The translations under genes and the position numbers were made by a program. 64,000 nucleotides of DNA from an uncultured Bacillota bacterium (GTDB lineage Bacteria; Sysuimicrobiota; Sysuimicrobiia; Sysuimicrobiales; Segetimicrobiaceae): positions 13,279-77,278 of the forward strand of contig CAWDRG010000020.1 of the NCBI GenBank assembly GCA_963804645.1, read 5' to 3'. The notes below the pieces were generated by a model. The model saw only the letters and a program-made list of their open reading frames with translations. It did not search any database and was not told where the DNA came from. Positions 5,838 to 62,945 of the stretch are shown piece after piece. Each line of letters starts with the position of its first letter. Within the stretch, counting starts at the first letter, position 1.

Positions 5838-7766
5838 ATGGGTATGCGGATCGACCGCCGTGGGTTTCTCCGGCTGTCCGCCCTCGCTACTGCCGGAGCC
5901 GTCTCGACGATCTACTTCCCGACCAACGGGGCGAAGCGCGCCCTGGCCGCGACCGCGTCGAAGTACCAGGAAGCGCCGATGCTGGCGGACCTGGTGAAGC
6001 AGGGGAAGCTCCCGCCGGTGGACCAGCGGCTACCCGCCTCAGAGGATGTCCTGGTCGTCCGCCCCATCGATGAGGTGGGAGAGTACGGCGGCGTGTGGCG
6101 GCTCGCGTGGAAGGGGCCCGCAGATTTTCACGCCTACGGACGCGAGAACTACGAGGCGGTGGTGCGCTGGCCGCGCAATCCGAAGGATCCGATCCAGCCG
6201 GGGCTCGCGAAGCGGTGGCAGTTCAGCGACGGCGGGAAGACGATTACGCTCTATTTCCGCAAGGGGCTGAAATGGTCGGACGGGCAGCCCTGGACCGTCG
6301 ACGACATCATCTTCTGGTGGGAAGACATCGAAACCAACAAGGAGCTGAACGCGGCGCCCCACACGGAGTGGGTCGTGAACGACCAGCCGATGACGCTGGA
6401 GAAGATCGACGACCTCACCATCAGCCTCAAGTTTGCCGCGCCGAACGGGATGGTGCTGTCGATGCTGGCGTTCCACGGAAACCAGTGGCCGCTCAACTTC
6501 GAGCGATTCGGCTTCTTCGTCCCGTCGCACTATCTCAAGCAGTACCATCCGAAGTACAACAAGACCATCACTGACTACAAGCTGTTCAACCAGATGGCCG
6601 ACGACCTCAACCCGGACCGGCCGTCGATGGCCCCGTGGCCGGTGTCGACGTACCGCCCGGGCGACGCCAAGCTCATCGCGTCGCGCAATCCCTACTACTG
6701 GAAGGTCGACCCCAAGGGGCAGCAGCTGCCCTACATCGATCGCCTCGAGCTGACGCTGGTCGAGAACAACGAGGCGGTGGCGAGCCAGGCGCTGACCTGT
6801 CAGATCGACATGCAGTACCGCGGCATGGATCTGAATAAGTTTCCGCTGTTCGTGTCGAAGGGCCAGGACTGCGCGTACCGCGTCGTCAAATGGCTCTCGG
6901 CGTCCGGCAGCCAGCTCCTCTTCTGGCCGAACCAGAGTTACGACGGGGACGATGTGCTTCGGAAGATCTTCCAGGACCGAAACTTCCGCATCGGGCTCTC
7001 GCTGGCGATCGACCGCAACAAGATCAATACCGTCGCGTACCTGGGGCAGGGACAGATCAACGCCCCCACGGTGGTGCCGGACTCGGCGTACTACCCAAAC
7101 AACGTGGCGAAGCTGTACCAAAACTACGACGTGCGCATGGCCGGGCAGTCGCTCGACAAGGCGGGGCTGAAGATGGGGCCGGACGGGAAGGTTCGCCTCA
7201 GGCCCGACGGAAAGCCGCTCGAGGTCGTGATCGAGACCCAGCTGCAGGGGGCGGACCTGGACGCGATCGAGCTGGTTGCGGCCGATTGGACCGCGCTGGG
7301 CGTCAAGACCGACATCAAGACGATGTCGCGAGACCTGTACTGGCCGCGGGCGACCGGCAATCAGGTCCAGATCGCGACGTGGAACGGCGACCGCGGGCTC
7401 GAGCCGTTCGTGGATCCGATCTACGTGTTCCCGTTCGACGAGCGGTCGTGGATGGCTCCGGCGTTCGGGGTGTACTACAAGACCAACGGGGCGAAGGGTG
7501 AGAAGCCGGTCGGGTCGCTGGCCCAGGCCCAAGCGCTGTACGACCAGTTCCGGGGCACGGTCGACCGGGGCAAGCAGGTCGCGATCGGCAAACAGCTAAT
7601 TCAGATGGCGGTTGAGGAAGTGACGACGATCTGCACCGTCGGGCTGGTTCCCGTGCCGCTGATCGTCGACAATCGGATGAAGAACGTGCCGGACCACTAC
7701 GTGCAGGACTGGATCATCTTTTCGCCGGGCAATCTGGATCCATGCCACTTCTTCTATAAGGCATAG
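5838..7766 (+). CDS. ABC transporter substrate-binding protein, family 5 (sugar/oligosaccharide-type), Tat signal
   Basis: DRRGFLR twin-arginine motif; EAPMLADLVKQGKLPPVDQRLP, GLKWSDGQPWTVDD and RNPYYWKVDPKGQQLPYID. Confidence 0.92.
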   Translation: MGMRIDRRGFLRLSALATAGAVSTIYFPTNGAKRALAATASKYQEAPMLADLVKQGKLPPVDQRLPASEDVLVVRPIDEVGEYGGVWRLAWKGPADFHAYGRENYEAVVRWPRNPKDPIQPGLAKRWQFSDGGKTITLYFRKGLKWSDGQPWTVDDIIFWWEDIETNKELNAAPHTEWVVNDQPMTLEKIDDLTISLKFAAPNGMVLSMLAFHGNQWPLNFERFGFFVPSHYLKQYHPKYNKTITDYKLFNQMADDLNPDRPSMAPWPVSTYRPGDAKLIASRNPYYWKVDPKGQQLPYIDRLELTLVENNEAVASQALTCQIDMQYRGMDLNKFPLFVSKGQDCAYRVVKWLSASGSQLLFWPNQSYDGDDVLRKIFQDRNFRIGLSLAIDRNKINTVAYLGQGQINAPTVVPDSAYYPNNVAKLYQNYDVRMAGQSLDKAGLKMGPDGKVRLRPDGKPLEVVIETQLQGADLDAIELVAADWTALGVKTDIKTMSRDLYWPRATGNQVQIATWNGDRGLEPFVDPIYVFPFDERSWMAPAFGVYYKTNGAKGEKPVGSLAQAQALYDQFRGTVDRGKQVAIGKQLIQMAVEEVTTICTVGLVPVPLIVDNRMKNVPDHYVQDWIIFSPGNLDPCHFFYKA

Positions 7767-7853
7767 CCGAGAGATCGGCGGAGCGGTAGGCGGGCGGCGC
7801 CGGGACGCGCCGCCTGCGCATCGCGCCCCGCGCTGGAGCAGGGAGGAACTGGG

Positions 7854-8837
7854 ATGACCAGGTATGTCGTCCGGCGTCTCCTGGCCATGATCCCGACACT
7901 CTTTCTGGTGTCGATTGCCTGCTTCATTATCATTCAGTTGCCGCCTGGAGATTTCGTGACCTCGCTGGCGGCGCAGACGGCGGGCTCAGGATCGAGCGCA
8001 GATCAGGCGACGCTGGACAACCTGCGCCATCAGTACGGCCTCGATCAGCCCAAATACATCCGCTACATCAAGTGGGTCTCCGGATTCGCGCACGGCGACT
8101 TCGGCTACTCGTTCGAATGGAAGCGGCCGGTCGCCCAGTTGATCGGGGACCGGCTCGGGCTCACGCTGCTGCTCTCCACGTTGTCCCTCGCGCTGACGTG
8201 GCTGATTGCGGTGCCCGTCGGCGTCTACTCGGCGACGCACCGGTACTCGGGCCTGGACCACGCGCTGACGGCCTTCGCGTTCCTCGGGCTGTCCATCCCC
8301 GATTTCCTGCTGGGATTGATGTACCTGGCGATCGGCATCTTCGTCTTCCAAATGTCGGCCACCGGCCTCGTGTCGCCGCGGTTCGCGGACGCGCCCTGGT
8401 CGTTCGCCAAGCTCGCCGATGTGGCGAACCATCTCCTGTGGCCGTCGATCATCCTCGGCCTGGGCGGCATGACGCAGCTGATTCGCATTCTCCGCGGCAG
8501 CATGCTTGAGGTGACCAACCAGCAGTTCGTCACCACCGCCCGCGCCAAAGGCCTGGACGAGCGGGTGGTGATTCACAAACACGCGCTGAAGGTAGCAATC
8601 AATCCGCTGGTGAGCGTGATGGGCCTGCAGTTGCCGCAGTTGATCTCGGGCGCCACGATCCTTGGGATCGTGCTGTCGATGCCGACGACCGGCCCCATGT
8701 TCGTGCGTGCGCTGATCAGTCAGGATATGTATCTCGCCGGGACGTTTCTGCTGTTTCTGGCGCTGATGCTGATGATGGGCAATCTGCTGGCCGATGTGGC
8801 CCTGGCGTGGATCGATCCCCGGATTCGTTACCAATGA
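7854..8837 (+). CDS. ABC permease, OppB/DppB-like
   Basis: IIQLPPGDF; EAA-loop region FVTTARAKGL; ends IDPRIRY. Confidence 0.93.
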   Translation: MTRYVVRRLLAMIPTLFLVSIACFIIIQLPPGDFVTSLAAQTAGSGSSADQATLDNLRHQYGLDQPKYIRYIKWVSGFAHGDFGYSFEWKRPVAQLIGDRLGLTLLLSTLSLALTWLIAVPVGVYSATHRYSGLDHALTAFAFLGLSIPDFLLGLMYLAIGIFVFQMSATGLVSPRFADAPWSFAKLADVANHLLWPSIILGLGGMTQLIRILRGSMLEVTNQQFVTTARAKGLDERVVIHKHALKVAINPLVSVMGLQLPQLISGATILGIVLSMPTTGPMFVRALISQDMYLAGTFLLFLALMLMMGNLLADVALAWIDPRIRYQ

Positions 8838-29065: not shown

Positions 29066-30694
29066 TTACTTCGTGATGTACGCGTCGCTCAGCGCGGGAT
29101 ACGTCGAGTAGTTGTAGCGGACGTCCTGCACGTTCGAGCGGCGCACCCACACCGACAGCTCGTCCATCATCGGCATCGCGACGGCCTGGTCCAGCAGCAT
29201 ATGATCGAGTTGCACGTAGATCGCCTGGCGCTTCGCTGGGTCCAGCGTGCTGCGTCCTTCGGCGAGCAGCCGGTCGGCCTCGGAGTTCGAGTAGCACGAC
29301 CAGTTGAAGTTCGAGCCGATGTTGGCCGTGGCGAACAGCGCGTACAGCGTGTCGCTGTCGTTGGTCCGGAGGAAGATGGTCCCCGCGTGGTCGAGGCATC
29401 GGAAGTTGTCGTCCGCGAACCCGCCGATCGACTGGCTCTTGATCTGGAGGTTGATCCCGAGATCGGCGAGCTGGCCCTGCACCGGCTGGACGTCGGGAAG
29501 GTCGCCGCCGCCGCTGTTGAGCGAGTTGAAGACGAGCGTCAGCGGGCGGCCGTCCTTGACGCGCACGTGGTTGGGGCCCATCTTCCAGCCGGCCTCCTCG
29601 AGCAGCTGCGCGGCCTTGGCGGGGTTGTACGGATAGTAGGAGCAGGCGGCCGGGTCCGACAGCAGCACCTGGCTGACGATGCCGCACGCGGGGGAGCCGA
29701 GGCCGCGGTAGATCGCGCTGATGATCGCGCGGCGGTTGATGCCGTAGATGACCGCCTGGCGCACCCGCACGTCGTCCATCGGGGGGGCCTTGACGTTGAA
29801 CAGCCACAGATACGCCGAGCCCGGGAACGGCCGCGTGTCCTCCACGAGCTGCGGGTCTTTCCGGAGCTGCGCCAGGATCGCGCCGCCGCCGGCGCCGTAC
29901 CCGAGGACGTAGACCATCTGCGTCTCGCCCGACTGGACGGTCACCGCACGGGTCCCGGGCTCAGGCACGATCTTAAAGACGACGCGATCCAGGTAGGGCG
30001 GCCCCTGGTGATCGCTCCACGGCGCCTTTCGGTTGTAGTCGGGATTGCGGACGAACGTGACGTGATCGTTCGTGACGTAGTCGGACACCATGAACGGACC
30101 GCTGCCGACCGCGCCGTGGGCGACGGCCGCGACCGACTGCGTGGGCGTCGTCTTCGGCGACAGCATCCCGAGCACGCCGCCCGCCGCGTACGGCAGAAAT
30201 GGCGCGTACGGATCTTTGAAGTGCACCTCGACGGTCCGATTGTCCACGACCGTGGTGCCGGTGTAGCCGACCAGCGCCGTGATCGCGCCGCCGGGGTGGA
30301 AGTTCGGGCTGACGATCCGGTCGAGGTTCCACTTCACCGTGTTCGCGTCGAACGGCGCGCCGTCGGTGAAGCGCACGTCCTGCCTCAGCACGAAGGTGAA
30401 CGTCCGCCCGTCGGGAGACGCGCGGTAGCTGGACGCCAGCCACGGCACGATCTTCCCGTCCGGCTGCTGGTACACGAGGCTCTCGATGAGGTTCAGGCTC
30501 CCGACGAGATACGTGTTGGCGTAGGCCGACGCGTGGGGATCGAGCGTGATCGGGTCCGCGGTGATCCCCAGGGTCAGCGTGCCGCCGGGCACCGGCGCGG
30601 CGACGACCGCCGTCGCGAGCAGGAGCAGCGCCGCGCCGACGACCGCGGCGCACCACCGACTGGCTCGAGCACCCGAGCGCGTGACGTGTGTCAT
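29066..30694 (-). CDS. ABC transporter substrate-binding protein, family 5
   Basis: GGTLTLG, TLDPH, VRFTDG, GSGPF and YNPAKAAQLLEEAGW in canonical order. Confidence 0.92.
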   Translation of the reverse strand: MTHVTRSGARASRWCAAVVGAALLLLATAVVAAPVPGGTLTLGITADPITLDPHASAYANTYLVGSLNLIESLVYQQPDGKIVPWLASSYRASPDGRTFTFVLRQDVRFTDGAPFDANTVKWNLDRIVSPNFHPGGAITALVGYTGTTVVDNRTVEVHFKDPYAPFLPYAAGGVLGMLSPKTTPTQSVAAVAHGAVGSGPFMVSDYVTNDHVTFVRNPDYNRKAPWSDHQGPPYLDRVVFKIVPEPGTRAVTVQSGETQMVYVLGYGAGGGAILAQLRKDPQLVEDTRPFPGSAYLWLFNVKAPPMDDVRVRQAVIYGINRRAIISAIYRGLGSPACGIVSQVLLSDPAACSYYPYNPAKAAQLLEEAGWKMGPNHVRVKDGRPLTLVFNSLNSGGGDLPDVQPVQGQLADLGINLQIKSQSIGGFADDNFRCLDHAGTIFLRTNDSDTLYALFATANIGSNFNWSCYSNSEADRLLAEGRSTLDPAKRQAIYVQLDHMLLDQAVAMPMMDELSVWVRRSNVQDVRYNYSTYPALSDAYITK

Positions 30695-31941
30695 GACACC
30701 ATACCTCCCGGGATACCGTCGTGTGCTTGGGCCGTGGTTCGATACGGGTCGGCGCGCGTCCCGCCTCGCGCGGGCGCGTCCACATACGAGCGGTCGAGTG
30801 CGGCCGTGGATTGGCAGCCGATCAGTTTGAGGGTTCGCTCCAAGTCCTCGCGGAGGATCTCGATCGCGCGGGCGACGCCCGCCTCCCCGGCGGCGGCCAA
30901 ACCGTAGGCGTAGGCGCGGCCGATCAGGACGGCGCGCGCGCCCAGACACAGCGCTTTGATGATGTCGCTGCCGCGCCGGATGCCGCTGTCCAGCAGCACC
31001 TCGACCTGCCCGTGCACCGCGGTCACGATCTCAGGCAGCACGTCCAGCGTCGCCGCCACGCTGTCGAGCTGCCGGCCGCCGTGATTCGAGACGACGATGG
31101 CGACCGCTCCTTCGTCGACCGCGCGACGCGCATCGTCCCCCGTGAGCACGCCCTTGATGATGATCGGACCGCGCCAGACGCCGCGGATCCATCGGAGGTC
31201 CTGCCACGAGAATACCGCGCGAGACATCGACCCGCGCGTGTCGGCGAGCGTGAATCCACCTTGGCCCGGCACGACGATGTTCGGCAGCGCCTGGAGGCCG
31301 CCGTCGCGCAGGAATCCCGCGAGCCATGCGGGATGCGCGAGCAGCTGCGGGAGAAACGGCGTCTTGGCGAGCAGGCCGCCGTTGAGCAGCTCCTGCGTCC
31401 CGTTGCGGGCATCCCGCTCGCGCATGCCGACCACCGGGGTATCGACGGTAATCACCAGCATCGAGTAGCCGGCCACGCGCGCCCGTTCGATGGCGCCTTC
31501 GGCCGCTTCTCGCCCGCCGATCAGGTAGAGTTGATACCAGGCCGGTCCGGAGGTCGCGGCTTTGACCTCCTCCAGGCTGTGCCCCGAGACCGTCGAGAGG
31601 ATAGAGATCGTCCCGGCCGCCCCGGCCGCGCGCGCCGCGGCGATCTCGCCGCCGGGATGCATCATGCGGCAGTACCCCACCGGCGCGAGTAGGGCGGGCA
31701 GCGACAGGTCGAAGCCCAGCAGACGGGTGCGGAGATCCGGGCGAGGCACCTCCACGGCCTGGCGCGGCCGGAACGTGACCGCGTCGAACGCGCGGCGGTT
31801 CGCCGTCAGCGTCACTTCGCCTTCCGCGGCCCCGTCGAGATAGTCGAACACGATCCTCGGGAGCCTGCGCCGCGCCAGCGTCCGCAGATCCGCGATGCTG
31901 ACGGCGCGGGGAGATGCGACGGCACGCGATGCCCTGGTCAT
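30691..31941 (-). CDS. FMN-dependent alpha-hydroxy acid oxidase/dehydrogenase
   Basis: FDYLDGAA, LAPVG, TVDTP, IKGV, SNHGGRQLD, DSGIRRGSD and IGRAY. Confidence 0.93.
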   Translation of the reverse strand: MTRASRAVASPRAVSIADLRTLARRRLPRIVFDYLDGAAEGEVTLTANRRAFDAVTFRPRQAVEVPRPDLRTRLLGFDLSLPALLAPVGYCRMMHPGGEIAAARAAGAAGTISILSTVSGHSLEEVKAATSGPAWYQLYLIGGREAAEGAIERARVAGYSMLVITVDTPVVGMRERDARNGTQELLNGGLLAKTPFLPQLLAHPAWLAGFLRDGGLQALPNIVVPGQGGFTLADTRGSMSRAVFSWQDLRWIRGVWRGPIIIKGVLTGDDARRAVDEGAVAIVVSNHGGRQLDSVAATLDVLPEIVTAVHGQVEVLLDSGIRRGSDIIKALCLGARAVLIGRAYAYGLAAAGEAGVARAIEILREDLERTLKLIGCQSTAALDRSYVDAPARGGTRADPYRTTAQAHDGIPGGMVS

Positions 31942-50977: not shown

Positions 50978-51233
50978 GTCGAGCCCCCGATCTCACGCTT
51001 CGCGCGTGCCGATCTCCGGCGGCCGGCAGGTCCCGGCCGCCGCACCGTTCCGGGTTGTTGCCGTACGGCGTCCGTTCCTGCCGGACGCCATGGATGGCGG
51101 CCGCGCCGTGCGGGCTCGCGCCGCGGGACAGGGAAAGCGCCGCCGACCATGAACCTGAGCGGTGGCGGCGGCCCGGGACCGTGATCTTCCTCGGAAGGGT
51201 CAGCGACGGTCTCCCCGGCCCGCCGCCCACACT

Positions 51234-52427
51234 ATGACGGCGCTCAGCCTCGCGCTCCGATTCATGCTCGTGTCCGCGGCCGTGTCGATCGTGACCGAGC
51301 AGCTGCGCGTGCCGTACACCATTGCCCTCGTCGTGGCCGGCCTCGTGATCGGAAACATGCACCTGGCGCCGCCGGTGCTCGTCAGCCCCGACGTGCTGCT
51401 CATGCTGCTCATCCCCCCGCTCCTCTTTGAAGGCGGACTCAGGCTGCCGCCGCGCCATCTCAAGACCTACTGGGGCCTCATCGGCCTCCTGGCGATTCCC
51501 GGGACGCTCGTCACCGCGCTCGCGCTCGGCTGGACGGTGAACGCGGTGTTTCATCTCGACCTGCGCAGCGCGCTGCTGCTCGGCGCGATCGTGTCCGCGA
51601 TCGATCCGGTGAGCGTGCAGGCGCTGATGCGCGAACTGCGCCTCGACCTGCGTCTCGTCACGGTGCTCGACGGGGAAGCGGTCCTCAACGACGGGGTCGC
51701 GATCGTGCTGTTCACGATCATCGGGGGCACCGCCGCGGCGGGGCTGTGGGCGATCGGCCTCCGGTTCGTGTGGCTCATCGGGGGCGGCGCGGTGATCGGC
51801 GCGGTCGTGGCCGCGGCCACGTCCTACGCGCTGGGGAGCACGCAGCGGCCGCTGGTCGAGACGCTCGGCAGCCTCATCGCGGGGTTGGGGGCGCTCCTCG
51901 CCGCCGGCAGCGTGGGAGCGAGCGGGGTCATCGCCGTGGTGACGGCCGGCGTGGTGTTCGCGCGGTACGGTCCGCGCCACATGACCGAGGCGGGGCGGGA
52001 GACGGTGAGCGTGACCTGGGATATGATCGCGTTCGTGGCCAACTCCGTGCTGTTCTTGCTGATCGGGCTCGAGGTGCCCGCCGCGCTGCTCGTGCGGTAC
52101 TGGCTGCTGATTGTGGTGCTGGCCGCGGCCGGGCTCGCGGTCCGCGCGCTGCTCGTCTATGGATGCGTCGCCGTCTGGCAGACCCGGACGCGCCTGCTGC
52201 CGGGTGCGTGGCGGCCGGTCCTCTCGTGGGGCGGGCTGCGCGGCGGCGTCGCGATCGCGCTGGCGCTCGGCCTCGATCCCGCCACGCCCGGCCGCGACGC
52301 GGTCGTGGCGGGGGCGTTTGGCATGGTCATCTTTACGCTCTTGGTGCAGGGGCTGACCATCCGGCCGGTGATGCGCTGGGCCGGGCTGCTGCCGGACACC
52401 GCTCCTGCGAGCAATCCACCCCGCTGA
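51234..52427 (+). CDS. CPA1-family Na+/H+ antiporter
   Basis: PPLLFE, AIDPVSV, GEAVLNDG, WGGLRG and TLLVQGLT. Confidence 0.92.
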   Translation: MTALSLALRFMLVSAAVSIVTEQLRVPYTIALVVAGLVIGNMHLAPPVLVSPDVLLMLLIPPLLFEGGLRLPPRHLKTYWGLIGLLAIPGTLVTALALGWTVNAVFHLDLRSALLLGAIVSAIDPVSVQALMRELRLDLRLVTVLDGEAVLNDGVAIVLFTIIGGTAAAGLWAIGLRFVWLIGGGAVIGAVVAAATSYALGSTQRPLVETLGSLIAGLGALLAAGSVGASGVIAVVTAGVVFARYGPRHMTEAGRETVSVTWDMIAFVANSVLFLLIGLEVPAALLVRYWLLIVVLAAAGLAVRALLVYGCVAVWQTRTRLLPGAWRPVLSWGGLRGGVAIALALGLDPATPGRDAVVAGAFGMVIFTLLVQGLTIRPVMRWAGLLPDTAPASNPPR

Positions 52428-52541
52428 CCGATCCTGAGGCGGCGCGGGCGCCTCCTCGCAGGTGCCCCGTGCCCGTCCGGCGTACCGCTCTGGAACCCTT
52501 TGGCGTGCCGGAGGGGAAGACACGATTCGGGGGGGTGTCCA

Positions 52542-54060
52542 ATGCGCACGGGTCGATGGATGGTGCTCCTCGCCGCGCTGCTCAGTCTGTGCGTCGCGAA
52601 TACGACCGGCGTCTATGCGAAGACGCTGATGTTCGTCTTGGACACGACGGCGAACCGGGCCACCGAGGTGCAGGCGATCGTGGCCCAGCTCGGCCAGGCC
52701 GGGATCAGTGCGGAGGCGCGGGTGTGGGCGCCGTCGGTGCTGCAGGCCTAAGTCACCGCTGGCCAGCGCACCGCCTACACGACGGACTGGGGGAGCGCGT
52801 ACTTCGATCCGTTCGATCTCGCCGTCCCGAAATACGTCACGAAGGCGCGCGGGAACTTCTCGTTTTACTCGAACCCGACGGTGGACCACGACATGACCGT
52901 GGCGTCCAGCACGTCGGTCGACGGGCCGCGCAAGGCGGCGTATTTCGCCGCGCAGCAGGCGGTCTACAAGGACGCGCCGTGGGTGTTCGGCTACGTCCTG
53001 CAGAACATCGAGGCGCAGTCGACGGTCGTGGACGGGTGGGGTCCCGCGGCCGACAACAGCGAGAGCGTGTACCCGGTCAGCGTGCGGAACGGCGACAGCC
53101 TCGTCATCGCGATGCGCACGGACTCGATCGGCACCTTCGATCCGGCGATCCCGCCCAACCGCGACACGGAGACGGTGCTGCGGAACATCTATGACGCGCT
53201 GGTCGCGCACACGCTCGACGGGAAGATCGTGCCGCAGCTGGCCACGTCCTGGCACAAGGTTGGCCCCGCGGTCTACGACTTCACGCTTCGGAGCGGGGTC
53301 AAGTTCCAGAACGGGGATCCGCTGACCGCCGCCGACGTCGTGTTCACGTTCGAGCGGGTGCTGACACCCGGCATGATCACCGGCCAGGCGAGCGTGCCGC
53401 GGAAGGACCTGCTCGGCCGCTGCTCCGCGTGCAGAAGCTCGACGACACGCACGTGCGGTTCGTGTACAGCGCCTCGTTCCCCGAGGTGCTTCTGCTGCAG
53501 GCGCTCGTGCACTTCCAGATCGTGCCGCAGAAGTACGTCCAGCAGTCGGCGAAAACGGGTTTGTGGCCAAGCCGATCGGCAGCGGGCCGTTCACGTACTC
53601 GCGGGGCGCCGTGAACGCGGACATCGGGCTGGTGCGCAACGACAGCTACTGGGCCGGGCCGGCGAAGCTGCGGCAGGTCATCTTCCGGATGATGCCGGAG
53701 CCGTCGACCCGCATCGCCGCGCTGCTGGCCGGGGAAGTGCAGATCATCCAGGAGGTCCCGCCGGATGTCGTCGACCGGCTGAAGGCGAACCCCAACGTCG
53801 TCGTGAAGACGGCCGAAGGCACGCGCTCGTACGAGATCGAGCTCAACAACACGACGGCGCCGTTCAGCGACGTGCGCGTCCGACAGGCGCTCAATTACGC
53901 GATCAACTGGCAGCCGATTCTGCAGGACGTCTACCACGGCTACGCGCAGCGGCTCGCGACCGGCTTCCTGCCGAGCGGGTTCGGCTACGACCCGTCGCTC
54001 AAGCCGTATCCCTACGACATGGCCAAGGCGAAGGAGCTGCTGCAGCAGGCCGGCTACTGA
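52542..54060 (+). CDS. Circularly permuted family-5 ABC substrate-binding protein (interrupted as assembled)
   Basis: Signal peptide, then the normally C-terminal third, then the normally N-terminal part ending YDMAKAKELLQQAGY*. In-frame TAA at 52749-52751 and single-base deletions at ~53418 and ~53545. Confidence 0.85.
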
Positions 54061-54078
54061 GGGGGAGCGCACCGGCGC

Positions 54079-55089
54079 GTGCGTTTGGTCCGGATCGTTC
54101 AGCGGGTGCTGCTCGCGATTCCGGTGACCCTCGCGGTCGCCGTGCTCGCGTTTTTCTCGCTGCGCCTGCTGCCGGGCGATCCGGTGCAGATCATGCTGGG
54201 GAGACACGAACACCAGCGTCGCGGTGATCCGCTCGATCCAGCACGAGCTGCACCTGGATCAGCCCCTGTACGTCCAGCTCGCCCTGTTTTTCGGCCAGCT
54301 GGCGCACGGCGACCTGGGCACGTCGTTCGTGCAGCACCGGGCGGTGGCGGCGATGATCGGCGAGGCGCTCCCCGCCACGATCGAGCTCACCGCGGCGCCG
54401 TCGTGGTCGCCGTGCTGATCGCCATGCCGCTCGGGCTCGCCAGCGCGGTGAGACCCGGATCCTGGATCGACCGCGCGGTCCTCTCGACCTCGCTGCTCGG
54501 GGCGAGCATGCCCGGATTCTGGTTCGGCCTGCTGCTGATCCTGTTGTTCTCGGTGGATCTCCGCGCTGCTGCCGACCTCCGGGCAGATCGACTCGACGAT
54601 GGCGGTGCCGCCGGTGACGGGTTTCTGCTGGTCGACAGCCTGCTCGCCGGAAACGGGGCCGCGTTCGTGAGCGTCCTGCGGCACCTCCTGATGCCCGCGT
54701 TGACGCTCGGGGTCGTGTTCGCGGCGGTGCTGGCGCGGACCGTCAGGTCGTCGATGGTGGAGGTGCTGCACCGGCAGTACGTCACGACCGCGCGGGCGAA
54801 GGGCGTGTCGGAGATGGCGGTGATCCTCAAGCACGCGCTGCGCAACGCGCTGATCCCCGCGGTGACCGTGGCCGGACTGCAGATCGGGGAGCTGCTCGGC
54901 GGCAACATGATCGTGGAGACCGTGTTCGCGTGGCCGGGACTCGGACGCCTGGTGGTGAACTCCATCTTCGCGCGGGACTACGTCGTGGTGCAGGCCGCGG
55001 TCATGCTCTACGCCGTGACGTACGTCGCCGCGAACCTCGTCGTCGACGCCGCCTATACGCTGCTCGATCCGCAGCTCGAGTTCGGATGA
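54079..55089 (+). CDS. ABC permease DppB-like (two compensating frameshift pairs as assembled)
   Basis: LLPGDP, HLDQPLYVQL (alternate frame), YVTTARAKG, HALRNAL and ETVFAWPGLG. Confidence 0.85.
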   Translation: MRLVRIVQRVLLAIPVTLAVAVLAFFSLRLLPGDPVQIMLGRHEHQRRGDPLDPARAAPGSAPVRPARPVFRPAGARRPGHVVRAAPGGGGDDRRGAPRHDRAHRGAVVVAVLIAMPLGLASAVRPGSWIDRAVLSTSLLGASMPGFWFGLLLILLFSVDLRAAADLRADRLDDGGAAGDGFLLVDSLLAGNGAAFVSVLRHLLMPALTLGVVFAAVLARTVRSSMVEVLHRQYVTTARAKGVSEMAVILKHALRNALIPAVTVAGLQIGELLGGNMIVETVFAWPGLGRLVVNSIFARDYVVVQAAVMLYAVTYVAANLVVDAAYTLLDPQLEFG

Positions 55090-55120
55090 GGGCGCCCCGG
55101 TCGGCGGGGCTCGGTCGGGC

Positions 55121-56004
55121 GTGACCGCGCTCCACGTGCTGTACCCGATCCGGCGGCACGGCGCGCGCGCGCTGTCGTCGGCGTCCCGCGTGTCCGCGGG
55201 ACTCGCGGCCGAGCCGGTCGGCCTCATCGCCGGGGCGGTCGTGCTAACGTATTCGTGCTCGCGCCCGTCATCGCGCCGTCCCATCCCGAGGCGACCGATC
55301 TTGCCGCGCGCCTCGCCCCGCCCTCCCAAGCCCACTGGTTCGGGACCGACGAGCTCGGCCGGGACATCCTCTCCCGCACCATCTACGGCGCCCGGGTCAG
55401 CATCCTGGTAGGGGTGCTGACCGTCGGCATCTCGACGGTGGTCGGCACGGCCCTCGGGATGGTCGGGGCACACGTGCGGGGGGCGGCGGACATGATCGGC
55501 GCCCGGCTCGTCGAGATTCTGCAGGCCTTTCCGTACTTGATCTTCGCGATCGGCGTGATGGCGTTTCTCGGTCCCGGCTTTTGGAATCTGATCTGGGCGC
55601 TCTCGCTGAAGGGCTGGATCGAGTTCTACCGGCTCGCGCGCGGCAGCACCCTGTCGGAGGCGGGCAAAGAGTACGTGGAGGCGGCCCGCGCGATCGGCTA
55701 TCCGACCGCGTGGATTCTCGTGAGCGAGATCCTCCCCAACATCGTGAACACGATCATGGTGGTCGCGATGCTGCGCGTCGGCTACTTCATGGTGCTCGAG
55801 GCCTCGCTCTCCTTCCTCGGGGTCGGCATCCCACCGCGTATTCCGGCGTGGGGTTCGATGGTCAACGAGGGCAGGGACGTGCTGTTTGTCGCGTGGTGGG
55901 TGAGCACCATTCCCGGGCTTGCGCTGCTCGTGCTCGTCGTGTCGATCAACCTGGTGGGCGAACGCATGCGGGAGATTCTGGATCCCCGCCGGCGCGCCGC
56001 GTAG
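55121..56004 (+). CDS. ABC permease DppC-like (frameshift near 55250)
   Basis: HWFGTDELGRDI, EYVEAARAIG, EASLSFLG and PAWGSM. Confidence 0.85.
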
Positions 56005-56256
56005 CGGTGTCCTCCATGCTGACCCCGGCCCACGCCTCGTCGCACGACCAGTCAATCCTACATCCGTGGCATTCGGAAGGTACGACGACGCGCTTCCAGC
56101 CTCGTTGATCGTAGAACGCGAGAGACACTGAACGCTGTCTGCCGAGAAGGGGGTGGCAGGTGCCGCGCGAACGTATGCCACGATGGGCTCGCCGGAACGC
56201 GCAGCCAGGAGCGCCACGAAAGAGACGACCAATCCTCGCAACGGGTGGGTGGAACG

Positions 56257-61325: not shown

Positions 61326-62945
61326 ATGTGTAGACGATCGATCCTGGTCGCGATCGCAACAGGTACGCTTCTTGCGGGGCTCGTGAGCGGCTCCGCGTTG
61401 CAGTCTGCCGCGGTGAAGGCGGCGGCCGCCGGCGGACGAGCCGGTTTTTTCCGGATGGATCTCGCCCAGGAGCCGCCGTCCATGGACCCACAGGGGACGA
61501 CGCTCCCTGAGGCCCTCTTGTTAATGACCGCCATGTTCGACGGCCTGTTCACGTACCAGGTCGACCGCATGGAAGTGACCCCTAACCTGGCGTCGTCGTA
61601 CACGTGGTCGCCCGACGGGAAGGTCCTGACCGTCCACCTCAAGCCGGGCGTCCGCTTCAGCAACGGAGACCCGATGACGTCCGCCGACGTCAAGTTCACC
61701 ATCTTGCGGAATCTGCAACCGGCGGTCAAGTCTGCGTATGCGTCGGCCTACTACGACATCATCGGAGCGAAAGATTATTTTGACGGCAAAGCGACCGCCG
61801 TGTCCGGGATCGAGACGCCCGACGCGCAGACGATTATCTTCCGTCTTGAGGCACCGGAGGGATATTTCCTCAATATCCTCGCGCTCATGAGCTCGTTTGT
61901 GTCCGACCATCAGCTCAACACGGACGTGACCGCGATGGCCCGACATCCGATGGGCACCGGGCCGTTCAAGGTCGACTCCTGGCAGCCCAACGTCTCGATG
62001 AGCCTGGTGCGGAATCAATTCTACACGCGCTCGCCGACGCCCCAGATTACGCATATCGACATCACCTTCGGACCGACCCAGCAGACGCAGCTTGAGGCGT
62101 TCCAGCGCGGCGACGTGGACGCCATCTGGGGCCTCGGCCCTATCGATCCCTCTCTGTACCTGCAGATTCTGGCGACGCCTGAGCTGAAGCGCGATTATGT
62201 CTACTCGGACTCGCCGTGGCCGTACTTCATCCCGCTCAACCCGGACCTCGTGCCCGCACTGAAGGACGTGCGTGTGCGCCTGGCCATGAACTACGCCGTC
62301 GACAAGGAATACGTCGTGCGAAAAGGGCTCAACGGACGCGGCACGATCTTCGGCGGCGCCATTCCGCCTGGGATTCCCGGATACACGTCGAGCGTCAATC
62401 CGTATCCGTACGATCCGGCCAAGGCGAAGCAGCTCCTCGCGGAGGCGGGATGGACCCACGGATTTGACCTCGAGTTCATCGAGCACCCGGGCGATGAGCA
62501 CGTTCCGCAGATCATTCAGCAGGAACTGGCGGCCGTTGGGATCCGGGTGACGATCAAACAGGTGACATTCGCCCAATGGTTTGCGTTGCGGCGGGCCCAC
62601 AAGGTCCAGACCACCGACGCCGGATGGCTGATGGATTACCCGGATGCGCAGGACTATCTGTATTATCTGCTGGACAGTCACAGCCCGTTCAACGTCTACG
62701 GCTACCGGAACCCGAAGTTCGACGCGCTGGTCGAACAGGCCGACGCCATGACCAACCAGACCGAACGGATCAAACTGTATCAGCAGGCGAACGCGATCGC
62801 GGTGCAGGATGCGCCGTGGATCTTCATGTACAACCAGCGGACCGACGCCCTGTACCAACAGTGGGTGCAGCCTCGGGACGTCAACGTGCTGCTGAACCCG
62901 GTGCTGGGATTTCTGTGGAATACAGCGCGGGTCGAGAATCACTAG
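61326..62945 (+). CDS. ABC transporter substrate-binding protein, family 5 (canonical order)
   Basis: SMDP, GVRFSNGDPMTSADV, GTGPF, YDPAKAKQLLAEAG and DAPWIF. Confidence 0.92.
   Translation: MCRRSILVAIATGTLLAGLVSGSALQSAAVKAAAAGGRAGFFRMDLAQEPPSMDPQGTTLPEALLLMTAMFDGLFTYQVDRMEVTPNLASSYTWSPDGKVLTVHLKPGVRFSNGDPMTSADVKFTILRNLQPAVKSAYASAYYDIIGAKDYFDGKATAVSGIETPDAQTIIFRLEAPEGYFLNILALMSSFVSDHQLNTDVTAMARHPMGTGPFKVDSWQPNVSMSLVRNQFYTRSPTPQITHIDITFGPTQQTQLEAFQRGDVDAIWGLGPIDPSLYLQILATPELKRDYVYSDSPWPYFIPLNPDLVPALKDVRVRLAMNYAVDKEYVVRKGLNGRGTIFGGAIPPGIPGYTSSVNPYPYDPAKAKQLLAEAGWTHGFDLEFIEHPGDEHVPQIIQQELAAVGIRVTIKQVTFAQWFALRRAHKVQTTDAGWLMDYPDAQDYLYYLLDSHSPFNVYGYRNPKFDALVEQADAMTNQTERIKLYQQANAIAVQDAPWIFMYNQRTDALYQQWVQPRDVNVLLNPVLGFLWNTARVENH

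Follow-up and report, generated by a model that had tools for sequence, protein, structure and literature searches.

The only published natural permutant of a substrate-binding protein (SBP) that we found is TpMglB-2 (Tp0684) of Treponema pallidum, a circularly permuted ligand-binding protein of an ATP-binding cassette (ABC) transporter, which was given the label 'Type Ic / Cluster Bc' (PMC4990184). In that protein, the first three strands of the N-lobe have moved to the C-terminus, which makes a fourth hinge crossing necessary, and the protein keeps the bilobed fold and the ligand-induced closure and has homologues in other bacteria; the moved part is 13% identical to its counterpart, and a foreign origin was considered by the authors (PMC4990184). 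Here, we report on a gene encoding an SBP of family 5, or cluster C (the DppA/OppA/NikA kind), located at 52542-54060 on the plus strand of a 64,000-nucleotide stretch (the window) of contig CAWDRG010000020.1 in the assembly GCA_963804645.1 of an uncultured Bacillota bacterium. In this gene, a signal peptide is followed by the C-terminal third of the SBP and then, in frame, by the N-terminal two-thirds. The initial annotation of the window had proposed that a family-5 SBP is circularly permuted here by nature, and intact orthologues, segment-order tests and phylogenetic trees agree with this proposal: the family-5 SBPs very probably include a genuine and conserved subfamily with circular permutation, of which the window gene is a copy that was inactivated recently.

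The reading opens at 52542 with MRTGRWMVLLAALLSLCVANTTGVYA, continuing as KTLMFVLDTT..., that is, a hydrophobic signal sequence and directly behind it KTLMFVLDTTANRATEVQAIVAQLGQAGI. The signal peptide, of 26 codons (52542-52619, +), was read directly from the sequence, and the same N-terminus was found in intact orthologues. Segment A (residues 27-180; 52620-53081, +) is homologous to the canonical C-terminal third and, judged from sequence alignments, appears to be part of lobe 2 plus the C-terminal strand(s) of lobe 1. It contains an in-frame TAA stop (52749-52751, +) at a site that is Gln in the orthologues (..VLQAQIL..), after which the same frame stays open via ...DWGSAYFDPFDL...NFSFYSNPTVD...APWVFGYVLQNIEAQSTVVDGWGPAADNSESVYPVSVRNGDSLVIAMRTDSIGTFDP...FTFERVL... 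to ~53414. The old C-terminus passes into the old mature N-terminus at 53082-53096 (+; ..YPVSV-RNG-DSLVIAM..) without an inserted linker, and SESVYPVSVRNGDSLVIAM lies within this first frame, which is that of segment A, with G184 at 53091. Segment B (53094-54057, +), homologous to the canonical N-terminal two-thirds, was traced by Pfam and by tblastn in frames 3, 2 and 1; it is spread over three frames, the second from ~53414 and the third from ~53544, and ends with ...YPYDMAKAKELLQQAGY, the final residues being ...AKELLQQAGY before a TGA stop at 54058-54060. The codon count (291 + 42 + 171 whole codons plus two broken ones) amounts to 506, the length that had been predicted for the repaired protein.

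The swapped order of the segments was recovered in four separate comparisons. BLASTP against a canonical SBP encoded in the same window (61326-62942) aligned query residues 212-292 with residues 66-147 (E 1e-10) and query residues 109-151 with residues 460-502 (E 5e-4). Both ranges that had been cited as encoding canonical binding proteins (29066-30694 and 61326-62945) indeed hold family-5 SBPs, the first of them on the other strand than assumed: it lies at 29069-30949 on the minus strand (PF00496, 256.5 bits), and the plus-strand translation of the range has no Pfam match. On the pieces of the window gene, positions 1-56 of the PF00496 profile were placed at residues 228-282 and positions 113-278 in the last frame (82.2 and 164.5 bits). 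The intact orthologue P0002 matched the profile with 281.4 bits (cut-off 32.4) in two stretches, of which the best pairs residues 228-505 with profile positions 1-278. Compared with P0126, the canonical representative nearest to it (513 aa; mature start ..APDRDTLVIG, C-terminus ..NMHDVYKER), the big segment of P0002 (residues 185-505) corresponds to residues 29-354 (41% identity, E 4e-80) and the small segment (residues 25-179) to residues 354-509 (38% identity, E 2e-29); together, they cover residues 29-509 of P0126 once, with no overlap and no loss, so that nothing is duplicated or missing, as the initial annotation had stated. The same two-piece pattern was obtained with the solved structures 6ofq_A (P0002 residues 182-505 to 28-369 and 35-150 to 379-500) and 5u4o_A. 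Against E. coli K-12 DppA, as annotated in the genome of that strain, P0002 gave two swapped matches, residues 216-504 to 60-367 (31% identity, E 1e-36) and, weakly, residues 43-146 to 393-499. When the segment order was scored across proteins, small-then-big was found in 14/14 family members and big-then-small in 32/32 canonical proteins that gave matches to both segments, five further canonical proteins having given no small-segment match. With their significant PF00496 match, the permuted proteins are members of family 5/cluster C in homology; in topology they depart from the canonical N-to-C segment order, in a form not represented by any curated model.

Taken alone, the broken window copy could also be read as fragments, which raises the alternative that the swapped order reflects a misassembly, or a 3' remnant beside a 5' remnant, rather than one protein. 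Even in the window copy, however, an open frame without interruption runs across the junction (52752-53414), and a contig assembled independently from a public sequencing run (X4 record 25, 52407-53383) bridges it. The same order is present in 8 of 30 related genomes (G003, G005, G007, G010, G013, G017, G022 and G027), which belong to three genera in the family of the window and to one genus in another family of the order. In these genomes, residues 1/15-292 are matched colinearly, with 46-83% identity and no internal stop; their intact open reading frames (ORFs) encode ~505 aa, with a signal peptide and an ..L.FVLDT.. start, run uninterrupted across the junction and end with ..LLKQAGY. In a collection of 5.8 billion proteins, the best 120 of 1287 matches were all colinear (52-100% identity) and carried only generic names, and the permuted order occurs in at least 120 protein clusters. 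Among species-representative genomes, 207 stretches encode a relative, of which 79 loci were kept for counting. A single high-scoring segment pair (HSP) crosses the junction in 77 of these 79 loci, from several phyla, the other two being interrupted by contig ends; an internal stop was found in 1/79, and the tail after ..AGY measures 0-8 residues in 76/79. The carriers include Deinococcota (Trueperaceae, Deinococcaceae), Bacillota (Limnochordales, Thermaerobacter, Fermentithermobacillaceae and the cultured Moorella mulderi DSM 14980, locus L044), Desulfobacterota and metagenome-assembled genomes (MAGs) of Pseudomonadota. The ratio of non-synonymous to synonymous substitution rates (dN/dS) is 0.12-0.20 among intact orthologues, which indicates that the permuted gene is under purifying selection. 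The observation is therefore neither an artefact nor a one-off; misassembly or adjacent fragments are ruled out by the intact colinear orthologues, with practically no probability left to them, and the search for homologues colinear across the junction, which the initial annotation had suggested, came out in favour of one permuted protein.

To see where the chain ends would lie, a structure of P0002 was modelled with AlphaFold2 from a 30-sequence alignment, giving a predicted local distance difference test score (pLDDT) of 87.6 and a predicted template modelling score (pTM) of 0.83, with pLDDT 89-94 in the junction region (residues 161-190). Foldseek matched the model only with cluster C binding proteins, aligned over 331-397 columns of the 505 residues, and all 50 top entries of VIA-align paired model residues ~180-505 with the first ~320-350 residues of cluster C SBPs (Z 23.5-26.9). 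The best of these, 1uqw_A, had Z 26.9 and a root-mean-square deviation (rmsd) of 2.1 over 313 aligned residues (model 183-505), and residues 1-340 of E. coli DppA (1dpp_A) corresponded to model residues 185-505 (Z 25.6, rmsd 3.5, 318 aligned). Since both programs align sequentially, it is the sequence alignment that places the permuted third (residues 27-180) in lobe 2. In the model, the chain thus ends at the equivalent of DppA residue ~340, and its mature part starts at the equivalent of residue ~341. With lobe 2 of DppA, which we take to span about residues 261-478, this cut would put both new chain ends inside lobe 2, the old ends, both of lobe 1, being joined directly; this agrees with the earlier suggestion that the new termini lie in the other lobe. 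A changed number of inter-lobe linkers, suggested at the same time, is not expected from this mapping: since the old ends meet inside lobe 1 and the chain is opened anew inside lobe 2, the two hinge crossings of the canonical protein should be kept.

In an intact member of ~505 aa, a Sec-type signal would thus be followed directly by the strand that canonically comes after the '..AKxLLxEAGY' helix. The chain would then run through part of lobe 2, cross the hinge into lobe 1 with the old C-terminal strand, pass without a linker into the old mature N-terminus, continue through lobe 1 and the extra domain, and return across the hinge to end at '..AGY' inside lobe 2. The fold would be kept, and most likely also the Venus-flytrap mechanism with its two hinge strands. 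An altered anchoring geometry, which had also been put forward, could concern few proteins at most: among the 118 family members of at least 480 aa, a lipobox-like motif was detected in 1, and most have a short Sec-type signal ending with ..A.A before the K that begins the first strand, while P0123 and P0238 have Cys-containing signals with linkers. A changed tether geometry therefore cannot be the general rationale, and lipoprotein tethering was rejected as the reason for the permutation.

To trace the origin of the permuted order, the two segments were analysed separately. In a library of representatives at 50% identity, only P0122-P0125 and P0238 were colinear with the permuted protein, and from P0126 on every listed match had the canonical order. 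In the large-segment tree (51 rows), the 14/14 permuted proteins formed one clade nested among canonical proteins, with a support of 97 in the SH-aLRT test and with P0127, P0128, P0130, P0133, P0137 and P0155 as neighbours. In the small-segment tree (43 rows, leaving out those with matches shorter than 110 residues), the permuted proteins were again grouped, with a support of 72, next to P0134, P0133, P0127, P0128 and P0130. Because the two trees share the canonical neighbours P0127, P0128, P0130 and P0133, both parts of the protein appear to come from the same canonical lineage, which argues for a true circular permutation with a single origin and against a chimera. A chimera, with the N-terminal segment taken from a different SBP gene than the remainder, would fit the lower support of the small-segment clade, and the same possibility was raised by the authors of TpMglB-2 for their protein (PMC4990184). 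In addition to the overlapping neighbours, however, the two segments resemble the same canonical proteins to nearly the same degree (41% and 38% identity for P0126, 41% and 41% for P0127), and they jointly span residues 29-509 of the 513 of P0126 with neither overlap nor loss, so we regard a chimeric origin as very improbable.

Circular permutations usually arise by tandem duplication, fusion and the loss of both ends, and this duplication-fusion-truncation route is the likely one here as well. As for its fixation, we hold a near-neutral origin of the permutation to be most likely.

Next, the state of the window's own copy was assessed. Six lesions were counted in three adjacent genes: one stop and two frameshifts by single-base deletions in the SBP gene, two lesions in the dppB gene and one in the dppC gene. 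The dppB-like permease gene (54079-55089, +) was recognized from the frames at 54079 and 54224, from an intact orthologue and from Pfam BPD_transp_1, and has two compensating frameshifts near 54203 and ~54398; the dppC-like gene (55088-56004, +), also with BPD_transp_1, has a frameshift near 55252, where tblastn passes from frame 2 (55088/55136-55261) to frame 1 (55195/55255-55983). The claim that the SBP gene heads a normal dppB/dppC cluster thus holds for the presence of both genes and fails for their integrity. Short-read contigs assembled independently from four public runs (X1-X4) were compared with window positions 52400-56100. At frameshift 1 (53414-53416, +), the window is one G short of a sister-strain contig of X2, and the extra G behind 53414 gives ..LLGPLLRVQK..; at frameshift 2 (53543-53545, +), it is one G short of contigs of X1 and X2, and the extra G behind 53544 gives ..YVQQVGENGFVAKPIG.., the restored frames matching the orthologues in both cases. 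Likewise, the base at 54203 is omitted in contigs of X2 and X3, and sister contigs have indels at 55252-55255.

These sister contigs, as well as a dN/dS of only 0.16-0.26 between the window copy and its relatives, speak for an alternative in which the gene is intact in the living organism and the stop and frameshifts are assembly or consensus errors of the MAG. The window form was, however, repeated in other contigs: X3 record 20 (52770-53652, 0 gaps) has both deletions, X1 record 3 (53290-53538) aligns with 0 gaps, and X3 record 18 (52679-52799) has 0 differences to the window, the TAA included, which indicates that the lesions are real alleles and not consensus errors. The clustering of all six lesions in three adjacent genes also stands against errors, as full-length Pfam matches were obtained for the neighbouring genes (Na_H_Exchanger 4-375 of 375, Gln-synt_C 2-342 of 344, Ldh_2 2-332 of 333). 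Further, the partner genes found upstream in relatives, encoding GntR, AtuA and DUF4387 proteins, are absent, an intact Na+/H+ exchanger gene (51162-52427) lying in their place, and the SBP gene is lacking in 4 of the 6 other genomes of the window's genus. After the run-contig comparison, a sequencing-error origin of the breaks was judged unlikely, and an intact gene in the living organism has accordingly only a small probability. The window copy is therefore very probably a pseudogene in a decaying three-gene operon that lost its upstream partner genes, and its inactivation looks recent. No second colinear copy was present, as only the window locus was colinear among the 113 family-5 matches in the window's genome (5.3 Mb); 113 is in itself an unusually large paralogue set for a genome of this size. 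The peat-metagenome runs also contain several co-existing strain variants of the operon, which diverge by about 1% to 9%; in some of them, the sites that are broken in the window keep their frame.

The genomic context of the intact loci bears on the function of the permuted protein. The dppB gene lies 3' of the SBP gene on the same strand in 76/79 loci and dppC follows in 72/79; of the 59 loci with a flank of sufficient length, 35 also have DppD/F-like ATPase genes further on, and hence the full DppBCDF set. From these conserved neighbours, the permuted protein most likely serves as receptor for a Dpp/Opp-type ABC importer of its own, the cognate DppBC(DF) encoded just downstream. Within 5 kb after dppC, no DppD/F gene was seen in Deinococcota-type loci and in the window's own family (L024-L033, L048-L049, L053-L060); it follows dppC in Desulfobacterota and in most low-GC Bacillota loci. 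For the loci lacking it, the ATPases must be encoded elsewhere or shared.

A role mainly in signalling, as sensors and not as transport receptors, is suggested by three hybrid histidine kinases (P0122, P0272 and P0273; 1763-1892 aa) that start with a permuted family-5 domain. In P0122, a Pfam scan placed family-3 binding domains, HisKA, HATPase and a receiver domain behind it, and the precomputed Pfam lists give a similar domain set for P0272 and P0273; one histidine-kinase locus (L099, 6001-7533) has no adjacent dppB/dppC. Given the dppB gene directly downstream in nearly all counted loci, the frequent dppC and DppBCDF sets, and the presence of the permuted domain in no more than 3 of the 6 long proteins recovered (E <= 1e-20), signalling is highly unlikely to be the main role of the family. 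In these kinases, the permuted domain looks like it was recruited as a sensor module.

As to the ligand, Asp D436 of E. coli DppA holds the amino group of the peptide (PMC12136057). In our alignment, which is weak at this site (HSP E 0.22), D436 faces Ser86 of P0002 and Ala in most members, which speaks mildly against the classical peptide-binding mode, and the ligand is probably not a classical peptide. Ahead of the operon, the window's relatives have genes for a GntR/UTRA regulator, an AtuA-family protein (PF07287) and a small DUF4387-like protein (L020:5586-7917, L021:4265-6958, L009, L010 and L012). With AtuA-like genes in 8, DUF4387 in 9 and GntR in 14 of the 79 loci, this upstream context was too rare, and its use for predicting the ligand was abandoned. 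Genome G017 has one more open frame (L021:~6960-8100), placed behind the DUF4387-like gene and ahead of the permuted SBP gene, whose stop-free frame it shares.

Several points weigh against reading the window gene as a recently inactivated member of a permuted family with a single origin. The support of the small-segment clade is only moderate, and no tandem SBP-SBP intermediate was found among the 6 longer proteins, although the latter is weak evidence. The fold of the family members is a prediction, and the place of the N-terminal segment in lobe 2 depends on sequence alignment. For the window copy, the run contigs may share samples with the assembly and are then not fully independent, and the comparison of substitutions, which would bear on a CAA at 52749 in sister strains, covered 40 of the ~200 rows. 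Finally, the branch-wise dN/dS of the window copy, obtained by three-taxon arithmetic, is ~0.18 and thus barely above that of its relatives; from this slight non-synonymous excess, the inactivation would be recent, or the rate test weak. Since the window copy is a dying gene, it has little biological weight of its own.

That the permutation is an adaptive innovation, a new topological subclass of cluster C ('Cluster Cc' by analogy) which spread with its own permeases over at least four phyla, is a tentative idea that we hold to be rather doubtful. If it were adaptive, function would be changed by having both ends in the ligand-closing lobe 2, with a C-terminus free for fusion as in the three hybrid histidine kinases, and the order of export and folding, or the docking to DppBC, could be altered. 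Independently of adaptation, this would be the first described case of natural circular permutation in the large DppA/OppA/NikA class of binding proteins, and the earlier remark that no such subfamily was known to be described agrees with our searches within their coverage: no publication linking circular permutation with OppA, DppA, NikA, family 5 or cluster C was found in the full-text literature, most subscription journals being outside its coverage; all NCBIfam matches to the permuted protein fell below the cut-off and covered only residues ~181-505; and no solved structure matching it over the full length was returned by sequence search, Foldseek or VIA-align. The family explains truncated or two-piece matches in profile-based annotation, and why such proteins may be mistaken for fragments by readers or pipelines. 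It lets the dependence of the Venus-flytrap mechanism on chain connectivity be examined in a natural case. It also suggests where new termini, splits or reporter insertions could be placed in these widely used scaffolds, at an evolution-tolerated site behind the '..AKxLLxEAGY' helix. The cultured carrier Moorella mulderi opens the family to experiment, and its interest for structural biology, transport biology and sensor engineering is moderate.

Compared with the canonical family-5/cluster C SBPs (E. coli DppA, OppA, NikA and GsiB/YliB, AccA, and H. pylori DppA; PF00496), the permuted proteins are homologous over the whole length, match in predicted fold (Z 23.5-26.9) and share the secretion signal and the operon with DppB/DppC(/D/F). 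They differ in the swapped segments and in the chain ends, which correspond to DppA ~340/341 in the model instead of falling in lobe 1. Engineered permutants and insertion sites of periplasmic binding proteins, mostly based on maltose-, ribose- or choline-type scaffolds, are used for biosensors and demonstrate a tolerance of the Venus-flytrap fold for new chain ends. They are man-made, however, and in the papers found it is mostly the fluorescent protein that is permuted rather than the binding protein. A domain dislocation between type I and type II binding proteins, an ancient strand swap separating whole classes, was reportedly described by Fukami-Kobayashi et al. in 1999; it also alters chain connectivity, whereas here the change would be a clean, recent circular permutation of the whole chain inside one Pfam family. 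TpMglB-2 is likewise a natural permutant of an ABC-transporter binding protein. In contrast to this type I/cluster B sugar binder, the proteins reported here belong to cluster C, their two segments are 38-41% identical to canonical proteins, two hinge crossings are expected and most members are non-lipoproteins. Membership in cluster Bc was not indicated by any comparison, as all structural and sequence matches were to cluster C proteins.

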